A stretch of DNA of 51,121 bases from an uncultured bacterium (GTDB lineage Bacteria > Bacteroidota > Bacteroidia > Bacteroidales > Muribaculaceae): assembly GCA_946184715.1 (NCBI GenBank), contig CAMHGU010000001.1, forward strand, positions 1-51,121, in the 5' to 3' direction. Both the position numbers and the translations under genes were made by a program. Positions 8,444 to 36,093 of this stretch are shown piece by piece. Below the pieces are notes generated by a model that searched no databases, was not told the DNA's origin, and was given only the letters and a program-made list of their open reading frames with translations. Numbering within the stretch: the first letter of the stretch is position 1; the number at the start of each line of letters is the position of its first letter.

Positions 8444-8607
8444 CACTCAAATTCGCTCAACGTGAGGGCTGCTTGTGTCCGCATGGGGGCATATCTGTTA
8501 TTAGCGCTTAGCCTATGGCGCTAATTGACAACAATTTAAGGAGGCAGCGAAAGGTCGCTGCCGCGAAGAGAAGAAAATATTTTATTAATAATTATTAGAT
8601 AGTGTTT

Positions 8608-11949: not shown

Positions 11950-11971
11950 TCGTTAACAGGAACTTACTACT

Positions 11972-13681: not shown

Positions 13682-13699
13682 TCCAAAATTGTCACAGTC

Positions 13700-14833: not shown

Positions 14834-14845
14834 TTTTGCACTGAT

Positions 14846-16180
14846 ATGAAACTGAATAAACTTTCCTATATAGCAGCCGCGTTATTGGCACTCACTGCTG
14901 CCACATCGTGCAAAAGCGAAATCGACGACATCTTCGACAAGTCGGCTGCCGAGCGTATTGAAGACGCTATCAGCGACTACACCAAGGTCCTCACTTCGGC
15001 TCCTAACGGCTGGGTGATGCAATACTTCGCCACCGATGAGGAAAAGGGCTATATCTACTATATGAATTTCAAGGCCGATGGCTCCGTAGTCATCGCCAGC
15101 GACAACGAGTGGATAGGCAACACTTATAAAGAGGAGACCAGTGTGTTCCAGGTAATCGGCGACGATGGCCCGGTGCTCACTTTCAATAGCTACAACACGC
15201 TCTTCCATCTCTTTGCCGACCCTAACGACGTGCCCGAATGGGGCGGCGACGTGCTCGGTGAAGGCCACAAGGGTGACTACGAGTTCCGCGTGATGGGCTA
15301 CGATGAGGCCACTCAGACTATGACCCTCCGCGGCAAGAAGCGCAACATCGAGATTCTTCTCACCCAGCTTCCCGCCGGCGTCAATCCTGAGCAGTACTTC
15401 GCCGACCTCAAGGAGAAACGACCCGCCGTGCTCGACGAGCGCGTTACCCTGCTGTATCTCACCACCCCCAAACACGAGTATATTGTGTACGATATGGCTT
15501 CGTGCGAAATAGGCTACTTCCCTGTGGATGGCGATGAGATTGCCGACATTCAGTATGCCACTTGCGTATTCAATGGCGACGGCATCCGCTTCGCCACTCC
15601 TCTCGAGCTCGACGGCGCCACCGTGCAGAACTTCAAGCTCAACTCGGCTGGCATTCTCGAGTGTGTAGATAAGGACCAGACTGCCACCCTCAGCCCCGGT
15701 AAGCTCTACGACGTGTTCACTTCAGTCAACTACGCTTGGCAGATGGATTCACAGTCGCTCACCGGTAGCGTTTCTGATGCATATCAAGCCGTGGTGGACG
15801 AAAGCAAGGCCAAGACCGGCGGTTTCGGACAGAATTTCCGCTACTTCTTGTTCGACATCTTTGTAGATGCCGATGGCGTTGTGCATCCGGCCCTTAGCTT
15901 CCGCAACGGTAACGCAACAGGCCACTTCTACCTCGACAAGAACGAAGCCGGCGACAACGGCGTCAAGTTTGCCTTTACCGGAAGCGGCGATGCTGTAGCG
16001 CTCCGCTACATGGAGCTTGAGAACGGTCCCACCTTCACCACTAAGGCTTATCAGGACTTCATCGCCCTGCTCACAGCCGGCGAGTGGACTATCACTGCCA
16101 ATTCGGCTATGGCTCCCACTGAGCTTACCTTCGTCAATAAGAACAACACTGCCGACACTTTCAAGGTAGTGCTCCAATGA
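14846..16180 (+). CDS. DUF4302-like surface lipoprotein
   Basis: Lipobox ATSC followed by KSEIDD. It is 444 aa. In my recollection, the neighbourhood SusC-SusD-metallohydrolase-DUF4302 is recurrent in Bacteroidota. No catalytic motif was seen. Confidence 0.6.
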   Translation: MKLNKLSYIAAALLALTAATSCKSEIDDIFDKSAAERIEDAISDYTKVLTSAPNGWVMQYFATDEEKGYIYYMNFKADGSVVIASDNEWIGNTYKEETSVFQVIGDDGPVLTFNSYNTLFHLFADPNDVPEWGGDVLGEGHKGDYEFRVMGYDEATQTMTLRGKKRNIEILLTQLPAGVNPEQYFADLKEKRPAVLDERVTLLYLTTPKHEYIVYDMASCEIGYFPVDGDEIADIQYATCVFNGDGIRFATPLELDGATVQNFKLNSAGILECVDKDQTATLSPGKLYDVFTSVNYAWQMDSQSLTGSVSDAYQAVVDESKAKTGGFGQNFRYFLFDIFVDADGVVHPALSFRNGNATGHFYLDKNEAGDNGVKFAFTGSGDAVALRYMELENGPTFTTKAYQDFIALLTAGEWTITANSAMAPTELTFVNKNNTADTFKVVLQ

Positions 16181-16228
16181 TAGAATTTTCAATTTAACCT
16201 ATTTATTAATCCCTAACTACTTAGTACG

Positions 16229-22102: not shown

Positions 22103-22190
22103 GCGAGGATTCGAGTAATCGACTATTCGAGCAATCGAGCAATCGAGCAATCGAGTGGTCGAGTGGTCGAGGATTCGAGGGGTCGAGGAC
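22103..22190. repeat. 11-unit 8-bp tandem array (TCGAG-NNN)
   Basis: Read directly: gcgaggat tcgagtaa tcgactat tcgagcaa tcgagcaa tcgagcaa tcgagtgg tcgagtgg tcgaggat tcgagggg tcgaggac. It lies in the 569-nt divergent intergenic region. Confidence 0.9.
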
Positions 22191-22336
22191 GGCGGTGTAA
22201 AAATTTATTTGTAATAGGTGCAAATGTTTAGAATTGCCGGTGTTCAAATTTTGCTTATTAATGTTTAAATTTATCGAAATGCACCACAAAACGCAAAATT
22301 TTCATATATTTTTACCCCATAACGGAATTTTTTACA

Positions 22337-22344
22337 TAAATTTG
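22337..22344 (+). promoter_or_regulatory. Candidate -7 box (TAAATTTG) for the lipoprotein locus
   Basis: Exact TAnnTTTG match with TTTA 22 nt upstream, about 180 nt before ATG 22523. Confidence 0.3.
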
Positions 22345-22522
22345 CAATCGTTTTGAGGGTGAAAAAGCTGGTTTTTTCACTCCGACTAAATTGAAAATGT
22401 GACCCGAAATTTAGGCCCTACAGCCTCAAATTATTCTACCGAGCTTCCCGGGCAAAACCGAGGGAGCCGCTACGTGAGATAGAAAACTATTAATTCAAAT
22501 ACGACGTACAAATTAAATGTGT

Positions 22523-24943
22523 ATGAAACTTAAATTTTTAGGATTGCTTCCTGCACTGGTGCTTGCATTGGCATCGTGCAGCGACGACAGCCCGTACTCC
22601 GGCAACGGATTCGGCCGCATTGAGGCAACAGTCAACGCCGACGCGACGGTGACTCCCTCATCGGCACTGAGCCGCAGCGGTGAGACTACGGCAATGTCGG
22701 CTGATGTAAGCGCGTTTAAGGTTGAGATCGCCAAGAAAGACGGCACTTTCTCCAAGACGTGGGAGAGTGTGGCAGCGATGGACCCCGAGACGCAGTACCC
22801 CACCGGTGCTTACACTATCAACGTAAGCTACGGTGACGAGAACGCCGAAGGCTTCGAGAGGCCTTACTACTTCGGCTCCACTGAATTTGTTGTTGTTGAT
22901 GAAGAGACCGCACAGCCGGCAGTGACTGCCACCCTGTGCAACACGATGCTCTCTATCGACTACACCGATGCTTTCAAGAAGTATTTCTCCGATTACAGCG
23001 CCACCATCCACTCGGCCGGAGGTGCTTATATCGAATATGAGAAAGACGAGTTCCGCCCCGTGTATGTGCAGCCCGGCGACATAGCTCTCGAGCTTAATGT
23101 CACTAAGGCTGAGGACGGCAAGTCGTTCAAGTTCAACCCAGCCGACATCACCGGCGCCAAGCCTCGCACTCACTACAGTGTGAAATTCGACGTCAACGGC
23201 GGTGAGGTGGGCGACGCTGTCCTCACAGTAAGCTTCGACAGCACTACCGAGACCGAGCCTATTGAAGTGGTCCTCAGCGAAGAGCTCGTCAACGCTCCCG
23301 CGCCCACTATCAAGCCCCTCGGCTTCGCCAGCGGCGACGTGTTCAACATCATCGAAGGCGAGACCTTCTCCGAGTCGCCCCGCGTCAATATCCTTGCTCA
23401 TGCAGGAATCGAGAGCGTGACACTCACTGTCAACAGCGCTTACCTGGCAAGCCAGGGCTGGCCTACCGAGATCGACCTGCTTCAGGCTACCGCCGCTCAG
23501 CAGTCGATGATGACCGCCGCAGGCCTTAAGGTGACCGGCCTCTGGAAGAACCCCGACAAGATGGCACAAATCGACTTCGGCGGCCTCATTGCAAGCCTTA
23601 GGGACTACAACGGCAACCAGAATCACGAATTCTCCATCCAGGTGAAGGATAAATTCACCAAGCTCAGCGACGTGGTTACCTTCAAGGCCACGACCGAACC
23701 GCTGCAGCTCGTGCTCAGCAATCCCGGCACCCTCGCCCTCGGTCAGAACACCGCTACCGCCACTCTCGACTATAACGGCGGTAACGTTAACGACAATGTT
23801 AAGATTCAGATTATCAACGAGTATGGCGTTTGGGCCGATGCCAACGTGACCGGTATCACCTCCGCCGGCGACCGCAAATATACCGTGGCAATCTCAATCC
23901 CCGCATCCAACGACAATGTCACCATTCGCGCCATCTACAAAGGTGAAACTACCAGCAACACCCTGAAGATACTTCGCGACTGCCCGGCCTACACGATCAC
24001 GGTCGATGCTCTCGATGTATTTGCCAAGCGTGCCACTATCAAGGTAGTGCCCGAAGACGCTTCGCGCCTCGCCGACATTATGAACTACCTTACCATAGAG
24101 ACTAAGCAAGGCTCAGGCGTATTTGCCGAAGTGGCAGCCGCCAACGTCACCCGCAACGCCACTGCAGGTACGATTCTGCTCAAGAACCTGACTCCCTCCA
24201 CCGCCTATAGCGTACGCACCGCTCTGGCCGACTATAGCAACACGGTGACATTCACCACCGAGGCCGACCAGCAGCTCGCCAACTCCAATATGGACAGCTG
24301 GTACGTGAAGAGTAAGGGTAACTACTGGACCAACTATGTGTGTGGCGTCAATGGGCAGACACTCGTGTGGGGCACGCTCAATGACCTCACCACCGGTAGC
24401 GGCGTTGATGCTTACTACACTCGCCCGTGGAGTACATCCTCCACTACCGATGCCCACACCGGCACAGCAGCTCTCATCCGCACCGTAGGTTACGGTAGCG
24501 GTACTACCGGTGCAGGTTCCATTAGTATTGTTCCCAATACGACACAAGGTGAGCTTTACACCGGAACCTATTCAGGTGGCCCGCAATACGGCGTGGCATT
24601 CCCCTCGCGCCCCGATGCTCTTACCTTCTGGTACAAATACACTGCCCAGACTAAGGTGAGCGGCGACTATGGTGTGGCCTATGTGAAGGTGTACAACGCT
24701 GCAGGTACAGTAATCGCTACCAACAGCTTCAACATCACCTCCACCGGCTCTTACACCAAGAAGACCCTCGACCTCAACTACACCGTTAGGGCAAAGGCCG
24801 CCAAGATTGAAGTAGTATTCAAGAGCTCAGGCAACAGCGACTGCATCAAGCGCGCAGGCCTTAATCTTGTAGGCGCCAGCAACTCCACCGGTCACCAGGG
24901 CAGCCAGCTCTATATTGATGATGTAACCCTTGATTATAAATGA
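22523..24943 (+). CDS. Surface lipoprotein A: DUF4493-like N-terminal module, Ig-like repeats, Fn3-like module, PCMD-like C-terminal domain
   Basis: Lipobox LASC followed by SDDSP. The N-terminal module has GAYTINVSYG..RPYYFGSTEFVV..TATLCNTMLSIDY. Fn3-like segment LTPSTAYSVRTAL. C-terminal motifs NSNMDSWY, WGTLND, GELYTGTY, RPDALTFWYKY and LYIDDVTLDY. Alternative start at ATG 22517. Confidence 0.8.
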   Translation: MKLKFLGLLPALVLALASCSDDSPYSGNGFGRIEATVNADATVTPSSALSRSGETTAMSADVSAFKVEIAKKDGTFSKTWESVAAMDPETQYPTGAYTINVSYGDENAEGFERPYYFGSTEFVVVDEETAQPAVTATLCNTMLSIDYTDAFKKYFSDYSATIHSAGGAYIEYEKDEFRPVYVQPGDIALELNVTKAEDGKSFKFNPADITGAKPRTHYSVKFDVNGGEVGDAVLTVSFDSTTETEPIEVVLSEELVNAPAPTIKPLGFASGDVFNIIEGETFSESPRVNILAHAGIESVTLTVNSAYLASQGWPTEIDLLQATAAQQSMMTAAGLKVTGLWKNPDKMAQIDFGGLIASLRDYNGNQNHEFSIQVKDKFTKLSDVVTFKATTEPLQLVLSNPGTLALGQNTATATLDYNGGNVNDNVKIQIINEYGVWADANVTGITSAGDRKYTVAISIPASNDNVTIRAIYKGETTSNTLKILRDCPAYTITVDALDVFAKRATIKVVPEDASRLADIMNYLTIETKQGSGVFAEVAAANVTRNATAGTILLKNLTPSTAYSVRTALADYSNTVTFTTEADQQLANSNMDSWYVKSKGNYWTNYVCGVNGQTLVWGTLNDLTTGSGVDAYYTRPWSTSSTTDAHTGTAALIRTVGYGSGTTGAGSISIVPNTTQGELYTGTYSGGPQYGVAFPSRPDALTFWYKYTAQTKVSGDYGVAYVKVYNAAGTVIATNSFNITSTGSYTKKTLDLNYTVRAKAAKIEVVFKSSGNSDCIKRAGLNLVGASNSTGHQGSQLYIDDVTLDYK

Positions 24944-26412
24944 TTATGAAACGGATATATAACTTTCTCTTAATCGGCTTTGTAGCCCTCGTGGGGCTTA
25001 CATCATGCGACAAAGGCATCGACCCCATCGGCGACGGCGAAGGCCAGCTCCGCACCAAGTCGATAGCTATCGACGTGGTCAACTCCGAAGAGGTGGTAAG
25101 CCGTAGCTCCGTCGATGTGAGCACCTTCACCATCACCATCCGCAAAGCCGCTTCCGACGAGGTAGTTTACTCGTGGAAGTACAGCGAAATGCCTGAAATT
25201 ATCACCCTCGACGTGGGCGACTACAAGGTGGAAGCCTTCAACGCAGCTCCTCAAGACGCCGCATTTGAAGCTCCTTACTACTACGCTTCGAAAGAGTTCA
25301 CTATCGTGAAGGACGAGATCACCGAGATTGGTACTCTCGTGTGCAAGCTTGCCAACGTCAAGGTGTCAATCCGCTATAGCGATGAGCTGGCAGCCCTCAT
25401 CGGCAACGGCGACGACGTGAATGTAAATGTGGTAGTGGGCGAGCTCGGCAGCCTCGACTTCGCCTTCAGCGAGACCCGTGCCGGTTACTTCCGCTACGTG
25501 GAATCGAGTACCACTCTCGTGGCCACATTCTCAGGCACTGTCGACGGATTCTTCCTTAATGAATATAAGGTGTACAGCGATGTGGCCCCCGGCCAGCACC
25601 GCATCATCACCTTCTCGCTCAAGAGCAACCCGCTCAACCCCGACGAGTACGGCTCAATCGGCACCAGCGGTCTCTCTATCGACGCTACCGTGACCAACGT
25701 TGACCTCACCATCGATGTCCCCGTCACCGAAGAGCCCGTTGACCCCGACGATATGCTCAGCCTCTCCACCGCATCGCTCCGTATGGGTGCCGATGGCAGC
25801 ACTGCCAACGTCAAGGTAACCGCCACCGGCGACTGGACCGTGGAAAGCAACCAGACTTGGCTCACCACCTCGCAGGCTTCAGGCGCTAAGGGCGAAACCA
25901 CAATCACCGTGACCGCCACAGCCAACGAGACCACTGCCGAGCGCAACGCTACGCTGACATTCCGCATGGGCAACCAGACCAAGACCATCGCCGTGACACA
26001 AGCTGTGAAGGGCGACGACACCGCTCCTACAATCACCAGTACGTCGATTGACGTGGATGGCGTCAACATCGTTTCGGCCGGTATGACCGCTGCCGTTACC
26101 ATCAAAGCTCCTAAGGGCATCGCTCACCTCAACGTGACCATCGACTCGCCCTCTCTCACTCCGGCCGACCTCGAAGACGTAGGCCTCGGTGCCAACTTCG
26201 ACCTCGCTTATCCCGGTGAACTCGAAGGCGGCCTCTCCGGCCTCGGATTCCCCACCGGAAGCAACGTAATCGGCAAGAATGAGCTCGTATTCGATATCTC
26301 CTCGTTCATGGGTCTTCTCCAGGCTTTCGCCGGCGAGCACCACTTCATCTTGAACGTCGTAGATGCCAACGGGCAAGAAATCACCAAGACTCTCAAATTC
26401 TTAGTGCAGTAA
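24940..26412 (+). CDS. Surface lipoprotein B: DUF4493-like module plus BACON domain
   Basis: ATGA start/stop overlap with gene A. Lipobox LTSC followed by DKGID. GDYKVEAFNA..APYYYASKEFTI..LVCKLANVKVSIRY parallels genes A and C. A BACON-like segment at nt 25756-26004 reads GDWTVESNQTWLTTS..GETTITVTATANETTAERNATLTF..IAVTQ. Confidence 0.75.
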   Translation: MIMKRIYNFLLIGFVALVGLTSCDKGIDPIGDGEGQLRTKSIAIDVVNSEEVVSRSSVDVSTFTITIRKAASDEVVYSWKYSEMPEIITLDVGDYKVEAFNAAPQDAAFEAPYYYASKEFTIVKDEITEIGTLVCKLANVKVSIRYSDELAALIGNGDDVNVNVVVGELGSLDFAFSETRAGYFRYVESSTTLVATFSGTVDGFFLNEYKVYSDVAPGQHRIITFSLKSNPLNPDEYGSIGTSGLSIDATVTNVDLTIDVPVTEEPVDPDDMLSLSTASLRMGADGSTANVKVTATGDWTVESNQTWLTTSQASGAKGETTITVTATANETTAERNATLTFRMGNQTKTIAVTQAVKGDDTAPTITSTSIDVDGVNIVSAGMTAAVTIKAPKGIAHLNVTIDSPSLTPADLEDVGLGANFDLAYPGELEGGLSGLGFPTGSNVIGKNELVFDISSFMGLLQAFAGEHHFILNVVDANGQEITKTLKFLVQ

Positions 26413-26416
26413 CATC

Positions 26417-28555
26417 ATGAAGAAGATAGTTTATACCATATTAGCCACAATCTTCGGCGCGACGCTCATGGTGAGCTGCTCCAACGATGAGCCGATGGTT
26501 GGTGAGGGTAAAGTTTCCCTCAAGGTGGCTCTTAACAGCGATGTGAAGGTCATTGGCCGTGCCGAGGAAGACGACCTCGCAGCCAACTGCACCATCTACG
26601 TATACAACTCGGAGAACCTGATTCGCAAGTATCACGGCATAGCCGAAGTGCCCGAAGAGATTATCCTCGTGAGCGGCGACTACACGGCTGTGGCTTGGGC
26701 CGGCGACAGTGTCCCCGCTTCCTACACCGCCAAGTACTACAAAGGCTCCTCGCCTTTCACCATCTCGGCCGGTAGCGACGTGCGCACCACTATCGAGTGC
26801 AAAATCGCCAACACCGTAGCCTCCGTCATCTTTGAGCCTGAGGTGGACAATGTACTTACCGACTATAAGATTAACATAGGCAACACGGCCGGCTCGCTCG
26901 ACTTCGACAAGACCAACTCGGCCGACGCCAAAGGTTACTATATGATGCCCGATGGCGACAAGGACCTCACGTGGACCATCACCGGTACGCAAGTCAATGG
27001 CCAGCCGTTCACCCAGACCGGCGTCATCGAGAACGTGAAGCCCGCCACCGAGTATGCGCTCACCGTGCGCTACAACGAGAAGGCCTTCGAAGTGGGTGGC
27101 GCTATGCTGACCGTCGAGGTTGACGAAACTACCATCGACGTCAACGACGAGTTCATCCTCAAGACCGCTCCCCGCATCACCGGTCAAGGCTTCGACATCG
27201 ACAACCCCGTCTATATCGAAGAGGGCGCTGCCAGCAAGAAGAGCGTTTACATCGCTTCGGCTACCGAAGTTACCGGTATCGAAATCTCTTGCGAGCGCTA
27301 CACCGAGATGGGTCTTCCCGCCGCCACATTCGACTTCCTGACGATGAGCGCTACCGCTCGCGACGCCGTGCAGGCCGCAGGTATCACTTACTCCTACTCC
27401 TACGACGCCACTAAGGACGAGACCCTCGCCAAGCTCACCTTCGCTAAGGAGCTTCTCGACAAGGTCACCGGCCGCGTAGAGTTCGTCATCAAGGCCACCG
27501 ATAAGGACGGCCGCGTCACCACCAAGCCCTTAGTGGTAGAGGTTAGCGACGCTAAGGTCATCACGTCGGCACAGCAATCGGGCGACGTCACTTGCTACAC
27601 CGCCACTCTCCGCGGCGCCATCGCCAAGCCCGATGCCACCAACCCCGGCTTCAAGTACCGCAAGGTGGGCACCAGCGAGTGGACTAAGGTGGCAGGTACC
27701 GTCAGCGGTTCCAACTTCACCGCCAAGGTTACCGGCCTCACCTCCAACACCGCTTATGAGTACATCGCTGTGAGCGACGACTTCGACTCGTCAGTGGCCG
27801 TAGAGTTCACTACCTTCAACGACCCGCAGCTTACTAATGCCGGCTTCGAAGACTGGTTTACCGACAGCGACAACGCTCTCGTGCCCGCTTCATCGGCAAG
27901 CAACCTCTTCTGGGATTGCGGTAACCACGGTTCCATCACGCTGAACATAAATATCACGACTCCCGAATCGAGCATTAAGCACAGTGGTAACTACTCGATT
28001 AAACTGAAGAGCGACTTCCCGTCGCTGGCAGGTATCGGTAAGTTTGCCGCAGGCAACGTGTTCATCGGCAAGTACCTCCGCACAGACGGTACTAACGGTG
28101 TGCTTGGCTTCGGTCGCCCGATGGCATCGCGCCCCGTGGCACTCCGCGGCTGGGTGAAGTACACTCCGGGTACTATCGACAAGACCACCAGCTCGGCTCC
28201 CTCGGAGTGCAAGAAGGGTGACCCCGATAAGGGTATCATCTATGTGGCTATGGTCGATGGCACCACCAAGAGCGACAATGGCTCCGCTTGGCCGGTTATC
28301 ATCAAGACCAAGAGCAGCGATCTTAGCTTGTTCAGCAAGGACGATGCCAACGTGATAGGCTACGGTGAGCTTACTTGGCGCACCGCCACCGCAGGCAGCG
28401 GCCTCATCGAGTTCGAAATCCCGATCGAATACAAGAGTGACGCTATGCCCGCCAATATCCTCATCACCTGCTCGGCCAGCGCCTGGGGCGACTACTTCTC
28501 AGGCTCCACCTCCAGCGTGATGTACGTTGACGACCTCGAGCTCGTTTACGAGTAA
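26417..28555 (+). CDS. Surface lipoprotein C: DUF4493-like module, Fn3-like module, PCMD-like C-terminal domain
   Basis: Starts 4 nt after gene B. Lipobox MVSC followed by SNDEP. SGDYTAVAWAG..KYYKGSSPFTI..IECKIANTVASVIF. Fn3-like FKYRKVGTSEWTKV..GLTSNTAYEYIA. C-terminal motifs NAGFEDWF, FWDCGNHG, GNVFIGKY, RPVALRGWVKYT and MYVDDLELVYE. Confidence 0.8.
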   Translation: MKKIVYTILATIFGATLMVSCSNDEPMVGEGKVSLKVALNSDVKVIGRAEEDDLAANCTIYVYNSENLIRKYHGIAEVPEEIILVSGDYTAVAWAGDSVPASYTAKYYKGSSPFTISAGSDVRTTIECKIANTVASVIFEPEVDNVLTDYKINIGNTAGSLDFDKTNSADAKGYYMMPDGDKDLTWTITGTQVNGQPFTQTGVIENVKPATEYALTVRYNEKAFEVGGAMLTVEVDETTIDVNDEFILKTAPRITGQGFDIDNPVYIEEGAASKKSVYIASATEVTGIEISCERYTEMGLPAATFDFLTMSATARDAVQAAGITYSYSYDATKDETLAKLTFAKELLDKVTGRVEFVIKATDKDGRVTTKPLVVEVSDAKVITSAQQSGDVTCYTATLRGAIAKPDATNPGFKYRKVGTSEWTKVAGTVSGSNFTAKVTGLTSNTAYEYIAVSDDFDSSVAVEFTTFNDPQLTNAGFEDWFTDSDNALVPASSASNLFWDCGNHGSITLNINITTPESSIKHSGNYSIKLKSDFPSLAGIGKFAAGNVFIGKYLRTDGTNGVLGFGRPMASRPVALRGWVKYTPGTIDKTTSSAPSECKKGDPDKGIIYVAMVDGTTKSDNGSAWPVIIKTKSSDLSLFSKDDANVIGYGELTWRTATAGSGLIEFEIPIEYKSDAMPANILITCSASAWGDYFSGSTSSVMYVDDLELVYE

Positions 28556-28603
28556 TCCCGATCCTGAACTTTGATGACCGCTTGAAGTGTCATTAAATAA
28601 TCG

Positions 28604-28660
28604 ATATCATTGAGTTGTAAGGGCACGGCAAGGGCCGTGTCCTTACCTCGTCAATGATAT
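28604..28660 (+). terminator. Long compound hairpin between sub-operons (terminator-like, no clean U-tract)
   Basis: The inner 13-bp stem pairs 28617-28629 with 28634-28646 (one G-U, loop AAGG). The outer 10-bp stem pairs 28604-28613 with 28651-28660. Confidence 0.45.
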
Positions 28661-28675
28661 GTCATAAACTTTTGC

Positions 28676-28683
28676 TAACTTTG
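28676..28683 (+). promoter_or_regulatory. Candidate -7 box (TAACTTTG) for the beta-barrel/PCMD sub-operon
   Basis: Exact TAnnTTTG match 42 nt upstream of ATG 28725. No clear -33 TTTG. Confidence 0.3.
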
Positions 28684-28724
28684 TGGCCGCAAAACCAAGT
28701 AAATCAATATCCAGCCATCGAGAG

Positions 28725-29555
28725 ATGAAAATACTACATTATATATATAGGGTCGCGCTGTGGAGTCTCGCGCTTCTGCCGCTTTCGGCCCGGGCGCAGG
28801 AAGCCGCGCAGCTTATATCGCCATTGCCCGTCGATAGCGTGGCGCTCGCTGCCGATACCCTTGCCGCCGCTCCGGCCAAGGAGCTGCCCAAGTTCAATCG
28901 TGGCATTAAGCCCAGGGTGTTTGTGCCCAAAGGACAGATTGTGGCCGGCTTCAATGCCAACTTCAGCCAGTCCAATCAGAACAACTATCAGTTTTTCATC
29001 ATCGAAAGCGTGAACGGCAACACCGGCTCTATGAAAATCTCGCCATGGTGCATATATATGTTCCGCGACAATCTCGGTGCCGGCGGCCGTGTGGCCTACA
29101 CCCGCTCGCGCACTAAGATGGATAAAGCCAATGTGATATTCGACACCGAGACCAAGTACAGCGTCGACGACCTCTACAGCATCTCGCAGTCGCTATCCAC
29201 GATGGCGGTGATGCGCGCCTACATCAACTTGGGCAACAGCACCCGCTTCGGCATCGTGGCCGATGTGCAGCTCGAGTACTCCCACAGCACCGCCAAGATG
29301 ACCAACGGTCAGGGCATGGACTTCACCGGCTCCTATGCCACTACCAACGCCTTCAACCTCGGCGTTGCCCCCGGCCTCGTGATGTTTCTCAACAACTACT
29401 CGGCCATCGAGGTCAACGTCGGGATGCTCGGCCTCGGCTTCAAGAAGACCAATCAGCTCACCAATCAGGTGCGCGTGCAAGATATGCGCTCCACGGTGGC
29501 CAATTTCAGTATTAACCTCTTCTCCATCTCTATCGGGATGTCGTTCTATCTGTAA
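28725..29555 (+). CDS. Putative outer-membrane beta-barrel protein D (paralog of E)
   Basis: SPI signal peptide (LPLSARA|QEA). Alternating hydrophobic/polar pattern throughout. The C-terminal strand is ANFSINLFSISIGMSFYL. ATG 28725 is preferred over the GTG at 28683. Confidence 0.6.
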   Translation: MKILHYIYRVALWSLALLPLSARAQEAAQLISPLPVDSVALAADTLAAAPAKELPKFNRGIKPRVFVPKGQIVAGFNANFSQSNQNNYQFFIIESVNGNTGSMKISPWCIYMFRDNLGAGGRVAYTRSRTKMDKANVIFDTETKYSVDDLYSISQSLSTMAVMRAYINLGNSTRFGIVADVQLEYSHSTAKMTNGQGMDFTGSYATTNAFNLGVAPGLVMFLNNYSAIEVNVGMLGLGFKKTNQLTNQVRVQDMRSTVANFSINLFSISIGMSFYL

Positions 29556-30475
29556 TGTCTATGAAACGAATAGCCAATATCCTGATAATGATGCTTATAG
29601 CAGCTATGGGTGCTGCCCTGGCAGCTCCGGCCGAGAGCGACAGCATCACCCGCGTGCGCGATAAGATTGTGATGCCGTGGTTCCCTTCCAAGGCTAAGGT
29701 GATACGGACTGAGGACGATGTGGAGCAGGTGCTCGTGGGTAACGACACCGTCGATATGGTGCTCCCCGTGTTCAACTACGGCCGCTACGACCGCCATCTC
29801 TCCAACTATCTGTATATCCCCAAAGGCTCCTGGTCGTTCGGCCTTATGGCCTCCTACGGCAGCCTCAACAGCAACGATATGTCGCTGCTCAATATGGTGG
29901 GCGAGTTCAACTTCGGCGGCAACGCCTTCTCTATCCGCCCTTACGGCAGCTACTTCTTCCGCAGCAACCAGTGTATCGGTATGCGCTTCAACTACACCAA
30001 TTGGCATGCCGACCTCAAGTCGCTCAAGATCGACTTCATCGACGACCTCAACCTCGACATCCACAATGTGCTCTACGACAGCAAGGGCTACTCGATGTCG
30101 GTGTTCTACCGCAACTATATCGGTCTCGACCACGGCAAGCGCTTCGCCATCTTCAACGAGGTGGACCTCTCCATAGGCGGCGGCAACGGCAAGTTTGTGC
30201 GCTACTATAGCGACCTGCCGCGCGACACCCGCACCTCCACCTTCGACCTCCGCCTCAACTTCTCGCCCGGCGTGTCGGTGTTCTTCCACGAGAATGTGGC
30301 GTTCAACGTGTCGTTTGGCGTGTTCGGTATCTACTACACCCACGGCCGTCAAACCACCTACAAGACTCTCAGCGACGGCACCATAGAAGAGGAAACGGGC
30401 ACCCGCAACGCCAGCGGCGCCAATTTCAAGTTCAATCTCTTCAACATCAACTTCGGCATCGCAGTTCATATATGA
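29555..30475 (+). CDS. Putative outer-membrane beta-barrel protein E (paralog of D)
   Basis: TAATG stop/start overlap with D. Signal peptide (GAALA|AP). Motifs collinear with D: PKG.., I.P...Y.FR.N.G, and the C-terminal ANFKFNLFNINFGIAVHI. Confidence 0.6.
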   Translation: MSMKRIANILIMMLIAAMGAALAAPAESDSITRVRDKIVMPWFPSKAKVIRTEDDVEQVLVGNDTVDMVLPVFNYGRYDRHLSNYLYIPKGSWSFGLMASYGSLNSNDMSLLNMVGEFNFGGNAFSIRPYGSYFFRSNQCIGMRFNYTNWHADLKSLKIDFIDDLNLDIHNVLYDSKGYSMSVFYRNYIGLDHGKRFAIFNEVDLSIGGGNGKFVRYYSDLPRDTRTSTFDLRLNFSPGVSVFFHENVAFNVSFGVFGIYYTHGRQTTYKTLSDGTIEEETGTRNASGANFKFNLFNINFGIAVHI

Positions 30476-30497
30476 TAAGCCTTTTCAGCTCAATGTT

Positions 30498-32078
30498 ATG
30501 AATAAACGTATCCTATATATATATATGGTCATCGCCGCGGCGGCTATCGCGGCCCTGAGCGGTTGTATCAAGAACGATATCCCGTATCCCCGCGATCAGC
30601 TCAACTTCCTGGAGTTTGAAGCCGAAGGACAATCGTCATCAGCCGAAATCGACACCAAGAACTGCATTGTCACCGTCAATCTGCCGGAGCAGTCCAATCT
30701 GCGCCGCGTGGCCGTGGCTTCCTATAAACTCAGCGAGGGTGCCGAGGTGGTAAGCCCCGACCTCTCGTCGCCGCTCGACCTGCGTGAGAACGTCAAGGTG
30801 CTCCTGCATCGCTACTACGACACCGAGTGGATCATCAGGGCCAACCAGCCCATCGCGCGCTGCTTCGTGCTGCCCAATCAGGTGGGTACCTCCGTCATCG
30901 ACGTGCCCGGCAAGCGCGTGGTGGCCTATGTGCCCAAGACTGCCGACCTTAGGGCCCTCGAAGTGGACACCATCAAGCTCGGCCCCGCCGACGTCACCAC
31001 CGTGTCGCGCAATCTGAACCATCAGATTGTCGATTTCTCCTTGCCGCTGCGCCTTACCGTCAGCTACCACGACGAAGTGGAAATCTGGACTATCTACGTG
31101 CAGACCACCGACGTCAACGTATCCACCAGCCGCGTCGATGCCTGGAGCCGCGTAATCTGGGCCTATGGCGAGGGTAAAGCCGGTGCCGACAATGGTATCC
31201 GCTATCGCGAGCAGGGCCAGGAAGAGTGGATTACCGTCGATGCCGCTTCGATTACTCACAGCGGCGGTTCCTTCACCGCCCGCATCAATAGCGTCAAGCC
31301 CGAAACCGCCTATGAGGTGCAAGCCTACTCGGGCGAGGAGCTCGGCGAGATAGTCACTGTGACCACACAAGGCCTCTTCACCATTCCCAATATGGACTTC
31401 GACGACTGGAGTCTCAACGGCAAGATCTACCAGCCGTGGGCCGAAGGCGCCGAGGCGTTCTGGGACACCGGCAACCGCGGTGCCACCACGCTCGGCGACA
31501 GCAACACTATCCCCGGCAACATCACTTGGGACGGCGCAAGCGGCCGCAGTGCGATGCTGCAAACCAAATTCGTGGGCATCGGGGTGGTAGGTAAGCTCGC
31601 CACCGGCAATATCTACACCGGCGAATTCGTGCGCATCGATGGCTCCAACGGCGTGCTCAACTTCGGCCGCCCCTTCACCGGCCGCCCCACGCGCCTCAAC
31701 GGCTATATGAAGTACACCACGGCGCCCATCTCCTCTACCAATTCCGACCTCGCATATATGAAAGGCCAGCCCGACACGGCCCATATCTACATCGCCCTGA
31801 CCGACTGGGAAGCGCCCTTCGAGATACGTACCAACCCCAAGAATCAGCACCTCTTCGACATCAAAGACGAGCATATCATTGCCTACGGCAACATGCAGTG
31901 GGGCTCCAACGTGGATGAGTTCACACAATTCACCATCCCGCTCGAGTATCGCGCCACCAATCGCGTGCCACGCTATATCCTCATCGTGGCCGCCGCGTCG
32001 AAGTACGGCGACTTCTTCACCGGTGCCGACGGCGCCTGCCTCTGGGTGGACCATTTCTGGTTCGATTGGGACTACTGA
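30498..32078 (+). CDS. Surface lipoprotein F: Ig-like N-terminus, Fn3-like module, PCMD-like C-terminal domain
   Basis: Lipobox LSGC followed by IKNDIP. Fn3-like IRYREQGQEEWITV..VKPETAYEVQAY. C-terminal motifs PNMDFDDW, FWDTGNRG, GNIYTGEF, RPTRLNGYMKYT and LWVDHFWFDWDY, collinear with A and C. Confidence 0.8.
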   Translation: MNKRILYIYMVIAAAAIAALSGCIKNDIPYPRDQLNFLEFEAEGQSSSAEIDTKNCIVTVNLPEQSNLRRVAVASYKLSEGAEVVSPDLSSPLDLRENVKVLLHRYYDTEWIIRANQPIARCFVLPNQVGTSVIDVPGKRVVAYVPKTADLRALEVDTIKLGPADVTTVSRNLNHQIVDFSLPLRLTVSYHDEVEIWTIYVQTTDVNVSTSRVDAWSRVIWAYGEGKAGADNGIRYREQGQEEWITVDAASITHSGGSFTARINSVKPETAYEVQAYSGEELGEIVTVTTQGLFTIPNMDFDDWSLNGKIYQPWAEGAEAFWDTGNRGATTLGDSNTIPGNITWDGASGRSAMLQTKFVGIGVVGKLATGNIYTGEFVRIDGSNGVLNFGRPFTGRPTRLNGYMKYTTAPISSTNSDLAYMKGQPDTAHIYIALTDWEAPFEIRTNPKNQHLFDIKDEHIIAYGNMQWGSNVDEFTQFTIPLEYRATNRVPRYILIVAAASKYGDFFTGADGACLWVDHFWFDWDY

Positions 32079-32108
32079 CGTGCATAGCCCTTTCTTGACA
32101 ATACCCGA

Positions 32109-32140
32109 GCCAGCCCCGCCGCATCCACGGTGGGGCTGGC
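32109..32140 (+). terminator. Terminator-like GC hairpin after gene F
   Basis: GCCAGCCCCGCCG / CGGTGGGGCTGGC, 13 bp with one G-U pair and loop CATCCA. No U-tract follows. Confidence 0.45.
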
Positions 32141-32254
32141 CGGTTAATAGGCTCACAGCATCAGCCTGTTGCGCTCAGCGAAGGGCGGTAGAGCTGAAAA
32201 TTGGGCTATTTTTCGGAAAAATTGGCAAAAGGGCGAACTTTTTTGGCAAAATTC

Positions 32255-32398: not shown

Positions 32399-34156
32399 AT
32401 GAAGAAATTTACTTTATTTGCTGCAGCAGCTATCGTAGCTCTCACGGCTTCGGCCAAAGGCGATGCTTTGAGCATCAAGAGCGCGGTTGCTATGAACGGC
32501 GAAGCATCGGTGAAGAAGATTGAAGCCGGAGCTACGCTTAAAGCTACAACGAAATCCGACTTCAACATCACTCGCGAAGGTCGCAAAGCCACCAAGGCCA
32601 TCACTCCCAAAGCTGATGATGCCACTCCCACAGTCATCACCGAGCAGCCCGAAGGCGAACTCGTGCAATATGAGCGCGATGGATTCAATTGGGTTTATTC
32701 TAATGGTATTTCGCGCTACCTCCAAGCGGGAATCACCGATGTAGTTTATTCAGAGGATGATAATAGAGTATGGCTGAAAGACCCCCTTTCGTTTATCTCA
32801 AACGGTGCTTGGATTGAAGGTGAAGCAGTAGATGGCGGTTCTACGCTGAAATTCCGTACCGGGCAATTTTTGTCGTGGAACGAAAGCGAACAGTATGGTA
32901 TTTGTGTTGGATTCTATGTCCCGAATCAGAGCCCTACTACTGTTGCTTCCATTGCTGCCCTTGACACCGAAGAGGAATATATTACATTTACAATCGATGG
33001 TAATGTGATAAAGCCGAGTGGAGCCTTAGCCGCAAAGGATGCTGCGACTAATAATTATGGTATGCCAACTGAAGGAAAAATGCTCGGAGGATACTGGAAC
33101 GACGATCTTTCACCGGTTGGTTATTATTTTGATTGGGGTACGACACTTACAGAGTATGTAGCTCCCACCGATCCGATTGTCGTTCTGCCCGATGGACTTG
33201 AGACTGAAGAGTTTAACCTTACAGGTAATACCGATAGCGGTGCACTCTCGCAGAAGATCAATGTGGCTTTTGACGGCAGTGATGTCTATATCCAGGATTT
33301 CTCCGGTTTCTTCCCGGAGGGTTGGATTAAGGGTACTATCGGCGAAGATGGAACTACAGTGAAGTTTGGGCCTCAGTATCTCGGTTTATACATGGATAAG
33401 CATGTTATGTATCTTGTGGGTGCAACCTACGATCAGAGCGCTGGTAGTTTATTGCTCACCGAGGATAGCGGCTTCGAGTTTGAATACGATGCCGAGGCCC
33501 GCACTCTCAGCCAGACTACCGGCTATATTCTCGTCAATGGAAGCAAGGATGATTTAGGCTACTATGCTTACGCCTATGATCTCTTCATCTCCAATGAAGG
33601 CCCGGCCACTCCGGCAGCTCCCACCATCCTCAGCTGGACGGCCTACGATGAGGCTACCGGTAGCGGCTCGATGACTGTGCAGATGCCCATCATCGACACC
33701 GAGGGCAACGCCCTGCTTATACAGAAACTGCAGTACAAGCTGTATTCGGATATCGAGCGCGACACCACCGCCGTAACCGCAGGCTTCACGCTCTCCAACG
33801 TTGAGCAGTTTGACAACACGAGCCTCAAGCTTACCTTCACCACCGATGCCACTACCGTTGATTTCAACAATGTGGGCTTCAGCGCCATCTACAACGGTGG
33901 TCTCGAATCGCACGAATCGGAAATCGCTTGGTATCACATCAAGGACTACGCTCCCACGGCCACTGTCGGTGACCTGAACAACGACGGCTCGATCGATGGT
34001 AACGACGTGTCGGCTCTCCTCGAGATGGTTCTCGCCGGCGGCGTGAGCGATGAGCAGATGGGCGCGGCCGATGTCACCGGCGATGGAAGTGTCGATGGTA
34101 ACGACGTGTCGGCTCTCCTCGAGGTAGTTCTCGCCGGCGGCGGCTCTGGCGAATAA
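32399..34156 (+). CDS. Secreted protein G with C-terminal dockerin-like (double EF-hand) module; paralog of H
   Basis: SPI signal peptide and K/A-rich linker. The shared core motif is FPEGWIKGTIGEDGTTVKFGPQYLG. The C-terminus GDLNNDGSIDGNDVSALLEMVLAGG...ADVTGDGSVDGNDVSALLEVVLAGG has two dockerin-type Ca-binding segments. Confidence 0.8.
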   Translation: MKKFTLFAAAAIVALTASAKGDALSIKSAVAMNGEASVKKIEAGATLKATTKSDFNITREGRKATKAITPKADDATPTVITEQPEGELVQYERDGFNWVYSNGISRYLQAGITDVVYSEDDNRVWLKDPLSFISNGAWIEGEAVDGGSTLKFRTGQFLSWNESEQYGICVGFYVPNQSPTTVASIAALDTEEEYITFTIDGNVIKPSGALAAKDAATNNYGMPTEGKMLGGYWNDDLSPVGYYFDWGTTLTEYVAPTDPIVVLPDGLETEEFNLTGNTDSGALSQKINVAFDGSDVYIQDFSGFFPEGWIKGTIGEDGTTVKFGPQYLGLYMDKHVMYLVGATYDQSAGSLLLTEDSGFEFEYDAEARTLSQTTGYILVNGSKDDLGYYAYAYDLFISNEGPATPAAPTILSWTAYDEATGSGSMTVQMPIIDTEGNALLIQKLQYKLYSDIERDTTAVTAGFTLSNVEQFDNTSLKLTFTTDATTVDFNNVGFSAIYNGGLESHESEIAWYHIKDYAPTATVGDLNNDGSIDGNDVSALLEMVLAGGVSDEQMGAADVTGDGSVDGNDVSALLEVVLAGGGSGE

Positions 34157-34191
34157 CCAAGCCTACGGCCTTAACCGTACACTATATCGAA

Positions 34192-34232
34192 GGCAGCCGC
34201 TATCTATCCCGAAAGGCGGCTGCCTTTCATTT
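34192..34232 (+). terminator. Rho-independent terminator after gene G
   Basis: GGCAGCCGC (34192-34200) pairs with GCGGCTGCC (34216-34224), followed by TTTCATTT. Confidence 0.65.
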
Positions 34233-34277
34233 GCAAAGAAAAATGCCGAAAAATATTGTTAATCGAAATGTTTTTGC

Positions 34278-34285
34278 TATATTTG
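34278..34285 (+). promoter_or_regulatory. Candidate -7 box (TATATTTG) upstream of gene H
   Basis: Exact TAnnTTTG match. A partial -33 (ATTG ending at 34257) lies 20 nt upstream. Confidence 0.35.
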
Positions 34286-34380
34286 CGGCATAAATTGTAA
34301 TCAACGCTGCTCGTCGGCATATCTTATAGGCTATAGGTGCCGCGGCAGTAATTCTATTAATCCCAAACATAACCAAGCCT

Positions 34381-36093
34381 ATGAAAAAACTTTTACTCTC
34401 TCTCGTAGCTGTAGCCCTCGTGGCAATGTCAGCATCGGCCGCAAAGGTCAGCTTCAAGCCGACCCACAACGCCGGCCAGGCCACCACAGCCGTTAAGAAG
34501 GCTCCCAAGATGAATGTGGAGAAAGCTCGCTCGCTCAAGAAAGCCGGCCTCAAAGCCGCTGAGGATTTCCCTATCATCACCGAAGCTCCCGAAGGCACCA
34601 CAGAGTACATCTTTAAGCGTACAGGTAGTGCCACCCTCGTTTATTTCATTTGGTCGATGGAGACCGTACAGGACAATATGGCACTTCGCGCCTACGTTGA
34701 CCTCGCCAATATGAAGGTGTATATCAAAGACCCCGTGTCCAATTACGCTACCGGCGCTTTAGTAGAGGGCAACATCTTGGTTAAAGATGGCCAGTATTTC
34801 CTCGAAGTGCCCCTCGGCCAGAATCTTCTCTATAGCGAGGACTATGACGCCGCCACTCAGCTTTGGTTCCTCAATGGTGTGGAAGTGGAGGAAGACGGCG
34901 AAACTTATATTTCGTATGAAGTGGACCGCACCACAGTCAGCGCCGTATATTCGCTTGACCTGACTACTATGACGGTGGAGCTGCTCGGTGGCAGCAATGC
35001 TGAAGGTGAGGTCAAAATGCAGAGCGAGATGTTCGTGCTCGGCTCCGTATGGAGCGACGACGACTCCTGGACCGGCTACAGCGACTGGGATTCGGAGTAC
35101 ACTCTCTTCAACGACAAGCCGGTGGAAGGCCCCGCCGAGACTCTCGAGCCTGAAACTTGGTACGTAAGCGGCACAAGCTACTCCGGCGATGCTGTTACCT
35201 ATCCTTGCAATGTGGTAATCGATGGTGCCGACATCTACGTCCAGGGCGTGATGGCCGACCTTCCCGAAGGCTGGATTAAGGGTACTATCGAAGACGGCGT
35301 TGCCACATTCGCAGGTCCCCAGTATATGGGTATCACCGAGGGCAACTGGTTTATCTACGCCACCGGCGCTACCGATGGTGAGGAAGACGACTTCGAATTA
35401 GCCAATCCTATCACCTTCGCCTACGATGCCGAGGCCAAGTGCCTGACGCTCGAGAACGACTACCTGCTCTTCAACTGCTCCGATACCGACATCGATGGTT
35501 ACGACCTCCTTGCCAACGGCACCACCATCTCCTTTATCGAAGATAAGGAAGCCATGCCCGCCGCTCCCGAGTTCTCTTACGTAGGTGACTATGATCCCGA
35601 CTACGGTTATGGCTACGCAAGCATCTATCAAGAAGCTGTGGATGAAGATGGCAACCTGATTCTGCCTGACAAGCTCTACTATCAGTTCTGGAAAGAGGAA
35701 GGCAACGAGAAGAGCATCGTTGAGTTTAACCCCGACGAATATATGTATCTTATCGATCCTATGACCGAGATCCCCTACGCCTTCAGCGACGATTATGACT
35801 TCAACAACTTTGGTAATGACAAGACCATCTACCTCAACTTCGACTACAGCAGCTGGGACGGCATCGGTGTTCAGGCTATCTACTACGGTGGCGACGTGCG
35901 CACCGAGAGCAAGATCACTTGGTACGAGCTCTCCGGCGTTGAGGATGTCACCGCGGCTAAGAGTGTCGCTTCGGCTATTTACTACGACCTTACCGGTCGC
36001 CGCGTGGCTAAGCCCGCTCAGGGTGGTGTGTACGTGAAGAGCGTGAAGTACACCGACGGTACTGCTAAGAACTTCAAAGTGCTTGTGAAGTAA
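34381..36093 (+). CDS. Secreted protein H with T9SS type-A C-terminal sorting domain; paralog of G
   Basis: SPI signal peptide and K/A-rich linker. Core motif LPEGWIKGTIEDGVATFAGPQYMG (19 nt identical to G: tggattaagggtactatcg). The C-terminus AIYYDLTGRRVAKPAQGGVYVKSVKYTDGTAKNFKVLVK matches the T9SS CTD pattern. Confidence 0.8.
   Translation: MKKLLLSLVAVALVAMSASAAKVSFKPTHNAGQATTAVKKAPKMNVEKARSLKKAGLKAAEDFPIITEAPEGTTEYIFKRTGSATLVYFIWSMETVQDNMALRAYVDLANMKVYIKDPVSNYATGALVEGNILVKDGQYFLEVPLGQNLLYSEDYDAATQLWFLNGVEVEEDGETYISYEVDRTTVSAVYSLDLTTMTVELLGGSNAEGEVKMQSEMFVLGSVWSDDDSWTGYSDWDSEYTLFNDKPVEGPAETLEPETWYVSGTSYSGDAVTYPCNVVIDGADIYVQGVMADLPEGWIKGTIEDGVATFAGPQYMGITEGNWFIYATGATDGEEDDFELANPITFAYDAEAKCLTLENDYLLFNCSDTDIDGYDLLANGTTISFIEDKEAMPAAPEFSYVGDYDPDYGYGYASIYQEAVDEDGNLILPDKLYYQFWKEEGNEKSIVEFNPDEYMYLIDPMTEIPYAFSDDYDFNNFGNDKTIYLNFDYSSWDGIGVQAIYYGGDVRTESKITWYELSGVEDVTAAKSVASAIYYDLTGRRVAKPAQGGVYVKSVKYTDGTAKNFKVLVK

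Follow-up and report, generated by a model that had tools for sequence, protein, structure and literature searches.

What do six genes lying side by side on one strand of a Muribaculaceae genome, four of them for lipoproteins and two for paralogous beta-barrels, build in the outer membrane? The genes, here called A to F, occupy positions 22517-32078 of the forward strand of contig CAMHGU010000001.1 (assembly GCA_946184715.1), of which positions 1 to 51,121 were analysed as one window of 51,121 nucleotides (nt); the open reading frame (ORF) list of this window is the source of the gene coordinates and junctions. A preliminary description, made by reading the letters, had taken them for a self-contained six-gene apparatus of the cell surface that is not a SusC/SusD polysaccharide utilisation locus (PUL). 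The products are indeed all envelope proteins and none is a SusC or SusD, but D-E-F is a unit on its own. With high confidence the locus is a modular outer-membrane set, made of a core of two barrels and a PCMD lipoprotein to which variable pilin-fold lipoproteins with PCMD or BACON heads are added. With moderate to low confidence this set would work as a ligand-binding complex of the surface, with the barrels as its base and with B and C possibly processed in a type V-like way, and the explanation favoured here as a whole, a barrel-based surface ligand-binding complex of the outer membrane expressed from two transcription units, is given slightly less than an even chance of being right.

Which genes belong together was read from other genomes. 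A scan with a profile of E, using one genome per GTDB species, confirmed at least 244 relatives, and 80 of these loci with 10-kb flanks each formed a comparative set whose ORFs were scanned with hidden Markov models (HMMs) made from the domains of the window itself. In every uncut locus of the 80, D, E and an F-type gene (an N-terminal module plus PCMD) occur in this order, with overlaps or a few bases between them. What stands upstream is variable, and was counted in the 61 of the 80 loci that have at least 7.5 kb of upstream sequence: three DUF4493 genes in the order A-like, B-like, C-like in 6 of the 61, two in 3, one in 30, and none detectable in 18. Where the upstream DUF4493 protein is single it is usually A-like with about 840 amino acids (aa), or short with about 230 aa, and in 4 of the 61 loci an A-like protein is present with no DUF4493 detected, the module having been missed by the crude HMM. 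Locus L081 has three short DUF4493 proteins without PCMD ahead of D-E-F, and in L015 and L010 the core lies amid housekeeping genes, in L015 with a phosphofructokinase gene 5' of D and genes for an alpha/beta hydrolase and for Mur and Ddl ligases 3' of F. Because D-E-F is constant and the upstream DUF4493 genes vary, the conserved unit is D-E-F rather than the six-gene block, and A-B-C are accessory to it. The six-gene order, the conservation of which across Bacteroidales had been put forward for examination, thus holds for those 6 loci and for the close relatives but not for the rest, which have fewer DUF4493 genes or none. The close relatives (loci L163 and L164) retain all six genes, C being 92% identical, and also the divergent CapD-like and acyltransferase genes.

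The module reaches into Bacteroides. Metagenome contigs of Bacteroides ovatus type were fetched with the sequence of the PCMD protein of structure 4jrl, and on them a gene for a 260-aa OMP_b-brl_2 barrel begins 13 nt behind the 4jrl gene. About 4 kb away lies a cluster made up of one D-like gene, truncated where the locus ends, a pair of E-like genes coding for 281 and 417 aa, and one F-like gene of 530 aa whose protein begins SSCVKNDLPYP. Some strains carry this D/E/E'/F-like cluster and others do not. On one such contig (L082, 7530-16645) the PCMD gene cluster that includes the 4jrl gene and the OMP_b-brl_2 gene further comprises genes for a Calycin_like-DUF5018-PCMD protein and for an AraC-type regulator, besides the D/E/E'/F-like set with three barrels.

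The two barrels of the core are D (28725-29555, 276 aa counted from the first ATG, the listed ORF beginning at GTG 28683) and E (29555-30475, 306 aa). That they are paralogous barrel candidates had been proposed by eye, and this is now supported by BLASTP (23% identity, E-value 3e-18), by HHalign (probability 100%) and by an AlphaFold model of E, with a mean predicted local distance difference test score (pLDDT) of 72.3 and a barrel of long strands at residues 93-305. The product of D is a small outer-membrane beta-barrel with a signal of the signal-peptidase-I type (SARA/QE). Foldseek matches of the E model are OmpA, OmpW, OprG, Ail, OmpT and the autotransporter EspP, at E-values of about 1e-4 to 1e-3, and therefore D and E seem to be small barrels of roughly 8-10 strands with a narrow lumen. 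The family's best-conserved feature is a motif, NYGRYDRGLxNYLFIPKGQW, near-invariant as NYGRYDRxLxNYLxIPKGxW and carried by the N-terminal extension of E; D has a shorter version of it at its own N-terminus, opening with F-x-R-G...F-V-P-K-G-Q, and its other end reads ANF.INLFSI..G..FYL. Neither in Pfam nor in NCBIfam did any family match D or E at an E-value of 0.01 or better, and 25 homologues of E gave sub-threshold Pfam matches only, to Phenol_MetA_deg in 6 and to OMP_b-brl in 3. An exact-sequence look-up of E returned no record; its word-indexed homologues, about 1,900, are all unnamed or 'hypothetical' and come from Muribaculaceae-type genomes, and in an exhaustive profile search the D/E family comes to 845 clusters at 50% identity, 193 of them at an E-value of 1e-30 or better. 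Many members are extended N-terminally by 100-300 aa of low complexity, and Pfam found no domain in these extensions in ten long E-family members. The start of E is ambiguous between 29555 and 29588: the longest ORF overlaps the stop of D (TAATG) and gives a normal signal peptide, the start in close relatives is called 11 codons further down, and the TAATG overlap hinges on the start chosen.

The third member of the core, F (30498-32078, 526 aa), is a lipoprotein with the lipobox LSGCIKNDIP (Cys codon 30564-30566), and the peptide that begins at this Cys, C-I-K-N-D-I-P-Y-P, is near-invariant, in Bacteroides too. A profile of 28 F orthologues was searched against the PDB. Its residues 7-203, comprising the signal and lipobox plus two Ig-like domains, align to residues 9-203 of BT1761 (8a9y_T; also 8aa0) at an E-value of 2e-6, and four PCMD crystal structures were matched at E-values of 2e-19 to 2e-15. 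On the strength of these matches F is composed of a lipobox, two Ig-like domains of the surface glycan-binding protein (SGBP) type (about 30567-31097), one Fn3-like domain (about 31104-31394) and a PCMD head (31395-32057), the last recognised by Pfam (PF13201) at 147.5 bits against a cut-off of 28. F was also considered as a fourth pilin-fold protein and rejected as such, its N-terminus being unrelated to DUF4493 by HHalign, and D, E and F are alike not pilin-like by the same method. A match of F to GlfB_C is noise (E-value 0.0021, 18 bits against a cut-off of 27, in 1 of the 28 orthologues).

What the PCMD head might hold can be judged from BT2081, the crystal structure of which has an Ig-like domain and a jelly-roll domain with a Ca site, and a pocket about 23 Å deep with a conserved aromatic lining, for which carbohydrate binding was proposed and Asp259 and Asp338 were suggested as catalytic residues (PMC2954218). 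The preliminary description had held the modules of this locus to be without demonstrated function; literature searches on DUF4493/PF14900 bear this out, giving incidental mentions and no functional study, but for PCMD there is at least the BT2081 structure with its proposed pocket, that structure paper and incidental mentions being all that searches on PF13201, GlfB and PCMD returned. When the BT2081 pocket residues are mapped onto 72 PCMD domains of this locus type, the C and F families keep W145, N149, N200, F202, F206, F221, K237, Y261 and F280, and likewise D338, F340 and the Ca ligand D351, while the pocket of A is partly degenerate (positions 200, 280 and 340). At the position of D259, A has V, C has I and F has H, and the family has mostly I or V. 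With the pocket residues and D338 kept but D259 lost, a two-Asp hydrolase is unlikely. [quoted passage not shown]

The accessory genes A (22517 or 22523 to 24943, 808 or 806 aa), B (24940-26412, 490 aa) and C (26417-28555, 712 aa) also encode lipoproteins. Four lipoboxes with acidic residues behind the Cys had been reported, for A, B, C and F, and they read exactly so, those of the accessory proteins being LASCSDDSP (Cys codon 22577-22579), LTSCDKGID and MVSCSNDEP. The N-terminal module that A, B and C had been noticed to share is DUF4493 (PF14900), found by Pfam at 168.9 bits in A (22607-23278), 162.2 in B (25036-25722) and 165.7 in C (26501-27163) against a cut-off of 27, each match spanning model positions 1-225 of 226. 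All three also share module X, about 130 aa long (HHalign 92.5-98.6%), which stands after DUF4493 in A (about 23291-23692) and C (about 27164-27544), and after BACON at the C-terminus of B (about 26014-26409). The BACON-like domain expected in B lies at residues 273-356 (25756-26007) and passes the Pfam cut-off of 25 (PF13004 / PF19190; 50.1 and 51.7 bits). For the Fn3-like segment and PCMD said to be common to A, C and F, HHalign and Pfam agree: the Fn3-like segment (about 23909-24286 in A and 27545-27844 in C) is shared at HHalign probabilities of 94.6-98.9%, and PCMD scores 130.5 bits in C (27845-28546) and, divergent and marginal, 29.7 bits against the cut-off of 28 in A (24293-24931). Homologues of DUF4493 were collected by a profile search, a word-indexed one having given just 14 proteins.

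An AlphaFold model of residues 18-260 of C, the DUF4493 part, was made from 56 sequences and has a mean pLDDT of 81.9; its first strand, at fragment residues 13-24, comes directly after the Cys. All of the ten best Foldseek matches of this model in the PDB belong to the type V pilin superfamily, and they include the Bacteroides 'cell adhesion' pilins 3ufi, 4gpv, 3up6, 3pay and 5cag, the fimbrial protein BDI_3522 (3r4r), a DUF1812 protein (3gf8) and the Porphyromonas gingivalis anchor Mfa2 (5nfi). The match probability is 1.00 and the E-values are 1e-7 to 1e-5, with template modelling (TM) scores of just 0.32-0.51, mostly 0.4 to 0.5, values that stem from the match list and not from model coordinates. 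Sequence searches of the PDB, one with A alone and one with a DUF4493 profile, gave a single match, the designed beta-barrel 6czj, which was judged compositional.

Type V pilins are lipoproteins in which an Arg-specific cut in the loop after the first strand releases the anchor strand, the vacated groove then being filled by the C-terminal donor strand of the next subunit; the cleavage site is missing from anchor pilins, and donor strands from tip pilins (PMC13655056). For A, B and C an Arg behind the first strand had been claimed, and it was surveyed in the DUF4493 proteins of the 80 loci, grouped by protein class and by how many DUF4493 genes a locus has. A motif [SG]-R-[AST] lies about 25-35 residues past the Cys in 8/8 B-type, 7/7 C-type and 6/8 A-type proteins of three-gene loci, and B and C of the present locus have VVSRSS and VIGRAE. 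No Arg stands at the aligned position in about 22 A-type proteins that occur alone, nor in five short DUF4493 proteins, and so the claim survives for the B- and C-types but not for lone A-type proteins. The pattern fits a processing of these proteins in multi-subunit complexes and a lipid anchoring of the lone ones. None of the A-F proteins matched the FimA, Mfa1, Mfa2 or fimbrillin families of Pfam, so there is no stalk or anchor pilin gene among the six, and since the pilin-fold module is N-terminal, with module X, BACON, Fn3 or PCMD behind it, there is no free C-terminal donor strand either, an arrangement that among pilins is like that of tip pilins alone. For these two reasons the locus is not a canonical type V pilus. 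The type V likeness of the preliminary description is therefore upheld in the predicted fold and in the Arg of the B- and C-types but not as a polymer, and neither of the classical loci that it had named as possible identities, a fim/mfa operon or a SusC/D PUL, is represented by any family matched in the locus.

On the favoured explanation the paralogous barrels D and E would lie in the outer membrane and probably form a heteromeric base, on which F, exposed at the surface, would sit by way of its C-I-K-N-D-I-P-Y-P peptide. The stalk of F, two Ig-like domains and one Fn3, would hold out the PCMD jelly-roll head, the deep aromatic pocket of which would bind the ligand. A, B and C would contribute three further surface lipoproteins, each beginning with a pilin-fold DUF4493 and having the shared 130-aa module, and would bring extra heads, Fn3-PCMD on A and C and BACON on B. 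Because the Arg after the first strand is conserved in multi-subunit loci, an Arg-specific protease is proposed to cut the DUF4493 proteins there, behind their first strand, and the cut proteins might then be held by strand complementation in the manner of type V tip subunits and not by their own lipid. The ligand that the complex would capture at the cell surface is most likely either a glycan or some other molecule that is extended and partly apolar. Its role would be adhesion or retention, and it would be neither a glycoside hydrolase nor a SusCD-type importer.

Several points weigh against this picture. The association of D, E and F with one another is argued from conserved adjacency alone, and the lipoproteins are membrane-anchored already, which leaves their need for barrels not evident; D and E could possibly have a channel or export role instead. 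Residues 24-82 of E, the part that bears the near-invariant motif, are modelled at low confidence. As no pilin was matched when a DUF4493 sequence profile was searched against the PDB, the kinship of DUF4493 with pilins is one of predicted fold only, and shared descent of the three-gene loci may be what ties the Arg to locus complexity. As for a sugar ligand, T155, T185 and T219 of BT2081 have become L, V and L in the F family, which suits an apolar ligand at least equally. To our knowledge no ligand has been established for any PCMD domain.

The main rival is the capture and uptake of a small ligand. In it the PCMD pockets of F, and also of A and C, would capture a small molecule of apolar or amphipathic nature, such as a lipid, a quinone, a sterol or something resembling a bile acid, and pass it on to D and E as narrow channels of the OmpW/OprG/COG4313 type, the whole being likened to the surface lipoproteins that feed BtuB or HmuR. 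The deep pocket of BT2081 with its conserved aromatic lining (PMC2954218) and the yet more apolar one of the F family would both suit such a ligand, PCMD lipoprotein genes adjoin small barrel genes in two independent arrangements, D-E-F occurs alone without other partners, and the channels named are among the Foldseek matches of E, with weak Phenol_MetA_deg (COG4313) matches in 6 of 25 E-family members (best E-value 0.002). However the matches to barrels are generic, since the channels score no better than OmpA, Ail and OmpT, and such channel families normally need no two conserved paralogues. Neither a periplasmic or inner-membrane uptake component nor a metabolic gene, regulator or riboswitch is linked to the locus, and the pilin-fold, BACON and Fn3 modules suit display or adhesion better than transport. 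We regard uptake of a small ligand as unlikely, though still as the foremost rival. A true pilus, a helper of lipoprotein export and a glycoside hydrolase set are less likely. In the pilus variant A, B and C would polymerise by protease-mediated strand exchange, the short fibre ending in lectin tips, with D/E in place of the Mfa2/FimB-type anchor; besides the predicted pilin fold and the lipoprotein signals of A, B and C, the Arg of B-, C- and most A-type proteins of multi-gene loci and its lack in lone A-type ones would follow the logic of uncleaved anchors (PMC13655056). Yet the locus has no match to a stalk or anchor pilin family, the DUF4493 profile finds no pilin, and 230-550 residues follow the pilin module where a donor strand should be free. 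Tip pilins, it is true, also do without donor strands, but three tips cannot polymerise, and in 18 of the 61 loci D-E-F is found with no DUF4493 gene whatever; a pilus is distinctly improbable.

That D and E are export or assembly factors, taking F and A-C to the outer leaflet as Slam does with surface lipoproteins of Neisseria, or as linker-threading barrels do, would suit the strict coupling of barrel genes with a lipoprotein gene and a near-invariant peptide in F that has a single acidic residue, export signals usually having several. Folded domains could not pass so narrow a barrel of about 8-10 strands though, neither a TPR nor a POTRA-like domain is present, low complexity marks the N-terminal extensions of the family, and A, B and C have ordinary acidic lipoboxes of the export type. 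Bacteroidota, moreover, export many surface lipoproteins without dedicated barrel partners, and we regard this role as very unlikely. The reading of the PCMD proteins as glycoside hydrolases or PUL accessories that serve a SusC/D pair 10 kb upstream (8602-13681) draws on PDB titles of PCMD entries, which say 'putative glycoside hydrolase', and on the proposed catalytic role of D259 and D338 in BT2081 (PMC2954218). It has to contend with the replacement of D259 by I, V or H, with the failure of any CAZyme family to match (Pfam) and with neighbours that are not conserved around the module across genomes, and the SusC/D pair is a separate unit with a peptidase and DUF4302, from which oppositely oriented genes divide the present locus; it can hardly be right. 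Nor did Pfam match any of the six proteins to an enzyme, transporter, regulator, SusC/D or sorting-tail family (NCBIfam gave nothing), the lack of a recognisable enzyme, transporter or regulator having been stated in the preliminary description.

A variant of the favoured explanation goes further and would have the D/E pair, in place of a lipidated Mfa2-type anchor, nucleate and hold the Arg-cleaved pilin-fold lipoproteins by strand complementation from the barrels or from F. It is a long shot, but if true the complex would be a barrel-anchored, stalk-less relative of type V pili that shows PCMD and BACON heads, and a new way to build surface structures in Bacteroidales.

Comparison with known systems helps to place the favoured complex. 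With type V pili (FimA-E and Mfa1-5 of P. gingivalis, and the Bacteroides pilins in the JCSG structure set) it would share lipoprotein-precursor subunits, a possible double beta-sandwich in the predicted fold of DUF4493 (best matches Mfa2 5nfi, 3gf8, 3r4r and the Bacteroides pilins), the Arg in the loop after the first strand of B- and C-type proteins and, as in tip pilins, extra binding domains on the C-terminal side of the pilin module of A-C. It differs in the missing stalk and anchor pilin genes and donor strand and in the lack of a sequence-level link, and canonical fim/mfa operons in turn have no core of two barrels and a non-pilin lipoprotein such as F. With BT2081 and the other PCMD structures (PF13201; 3hbz, 3s30, 4jrl, 4het) it has in common C-terminal jelly-rolls in A, C and F that pass the Pfam threshold, the Ca ligand and aromatic pocket, lipoproteins with Ig-like spacers and, for the B. 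ovatus 4jrl gene, pairing with a small barrel gene. The stalks here are much longer, made of two Ig plus Fn3 in F and of pilin fold, module X and Fn3 in A and C. The pocket, more apolar, is without the proposed catalytic Asp259, and the partner barrels are of a different family for which Pfam has no model. The SusCD utilisome offers a third comparison, since the N-terminal region of F matches its levan SGBP BT1761 (8a9y) and both arrangements would put a lipid-anchored stalk with a binding head beside an outer-membrane barrel. The present locus, in contrast, has no SusC, a TonB-dependent barrel of 22 strands, and no SusD, its own barrels having about 8-10 strands, and no glycoside hydrolase or regulator is linked to it. 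In type IX secretion (T9SS) of Bacteroidota small or medium barrels hold surface proteins and the genes are adjacent, as in the pairs PorV/PorU, PorQ/PorZ and PorP/SprF-SprB. The likeness to these pairs, drawn from general knowledge, is that barrel genes adjoin surface-protein genes; unlike them A-F have no T9SS C-terminal domain (Por_Secre_tail) and no PorP/SprF match (Pfam), and the partners here are lipoproteins that would take the lipoprotein route of export.

Muribaculaceae and Bacteroides are dominant in the gut, and their surface proteins set what they bind and eat. The domains of this locus were catalogued before, one of them with structures, and the D/E barrel family is without a curated model; neither the D-E-F module nor its coupling to pilin-fold lipoproteins was found in the searchable literature. 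Widespread as the relatives and barrel clusters counted above make it, and compact as D-E-F is, the module provides a three-gene target for experiment, which could bear on the ligands of PCMD domains, on the pairing of barrels and lipoproteins in Bacteroidota and on type V-like strand exchange outside classical pili.

How the locus might be transcribed follows from its junctions. The tight packing described before is confirmed at all four junctions that had been named, an ATGA overlap at 24940-24943 (A/B), a gap of 4 nt at 26413-26416 (B/C), the TAATG overlap at 29553-29557 (D/E) and a 22-nt gap before 30498 (F), but C and D are set apart by a 169-nt spacer (28556-28724). This spacer contains a perfect 13-bp hairpin, GC-rich and without a T tail (28617-28646), and a promoter-like TAnnTTTG motif. 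It folds at -55.4 kcal/mol (z-score -5.7), and the hairpin is identical in loci L162, L163 and L164, with flanking sequence that has diverged; possibly it is a transcript-end, processing or stabilising element between two units. A pattern scan of the whole window for TAnnTTTG, the -7 motif of Bacteroidetes type, found 25 matches, mainly intergenic, where 13.9 are expected. The one upstream of A, TAAATTTG (22337-22344, forward strand), lies within a conserved block some 170 nt long (about 22190-22370) and is kept together with that block in L163 and L164; the one in the spacer, TAACTTTG (28676-28683, forward strand), stands 42 nt ahead of the start codon of D and is retained in the same two loci as TATCTTTG. 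By these signals the locus would consist of two transcription units, A-B-C and D-E-F, the latter with its own promoter motif behind the conserved hairpin. Scans of the locus for sigma-70 and terminator consensus sequences gave matches at chance level, an Rfam scan found no riboswitch and no other family, and an invertible promoter or terminator was rejected, the inverted repeats being weak and AT-rich only.

The block upstream of A, highly conserved, contains a direct repeat GGTGT-(A/T-rich)-TTTG at about 22194 and 22240 and may be an operator for some regulator. Next to it Tandem Repeats Finder reports an intergenic array of about 10 copies of the 8-bp unit TCGAGNAA (22104-22189, forward strand), 5' of A and between it and the divergent CapD-like gene. 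The array is an insertion relative to L163 and L164, whose flanks there are conserved; it is possibly not part of the system, and its copy number could vary among strains. The CapD-like gene itself was rejected as a part of the system, being present in 4 of the 80 loci, plus L081 and the close relatives.

Of the surrounding genes those at 8602-18796 form a separate outer-membrane unit, which comprises the SusC-like and SusD-like pair, a Peptidase_Mx1 lipoprotein and a DUF4302 protein and is followed by an 855-aa protein with a weak match to a T9SS sorting tail; the unit looks like a Sus-like locus directed at protein or peptide. Downstream of F, at 32399-36093, are two paralogous secreted proteins of 585 and 570 aa (29% identical, E-value 6e-38) with no Pfam family save a C-terminal type I dockerin in the first, and a TAnnTTTG motif of its own lies upstream of each. 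They are unlinked to D-E-F in other genomes, occurring in 0 of the 80 loci, and were likewise rejected as part of the system. On the minus strand, antisense ORFs of up to 505 aa run over A-F (22658-32156), as is typical of GC-rich coding sequence, and are no sign of genes.

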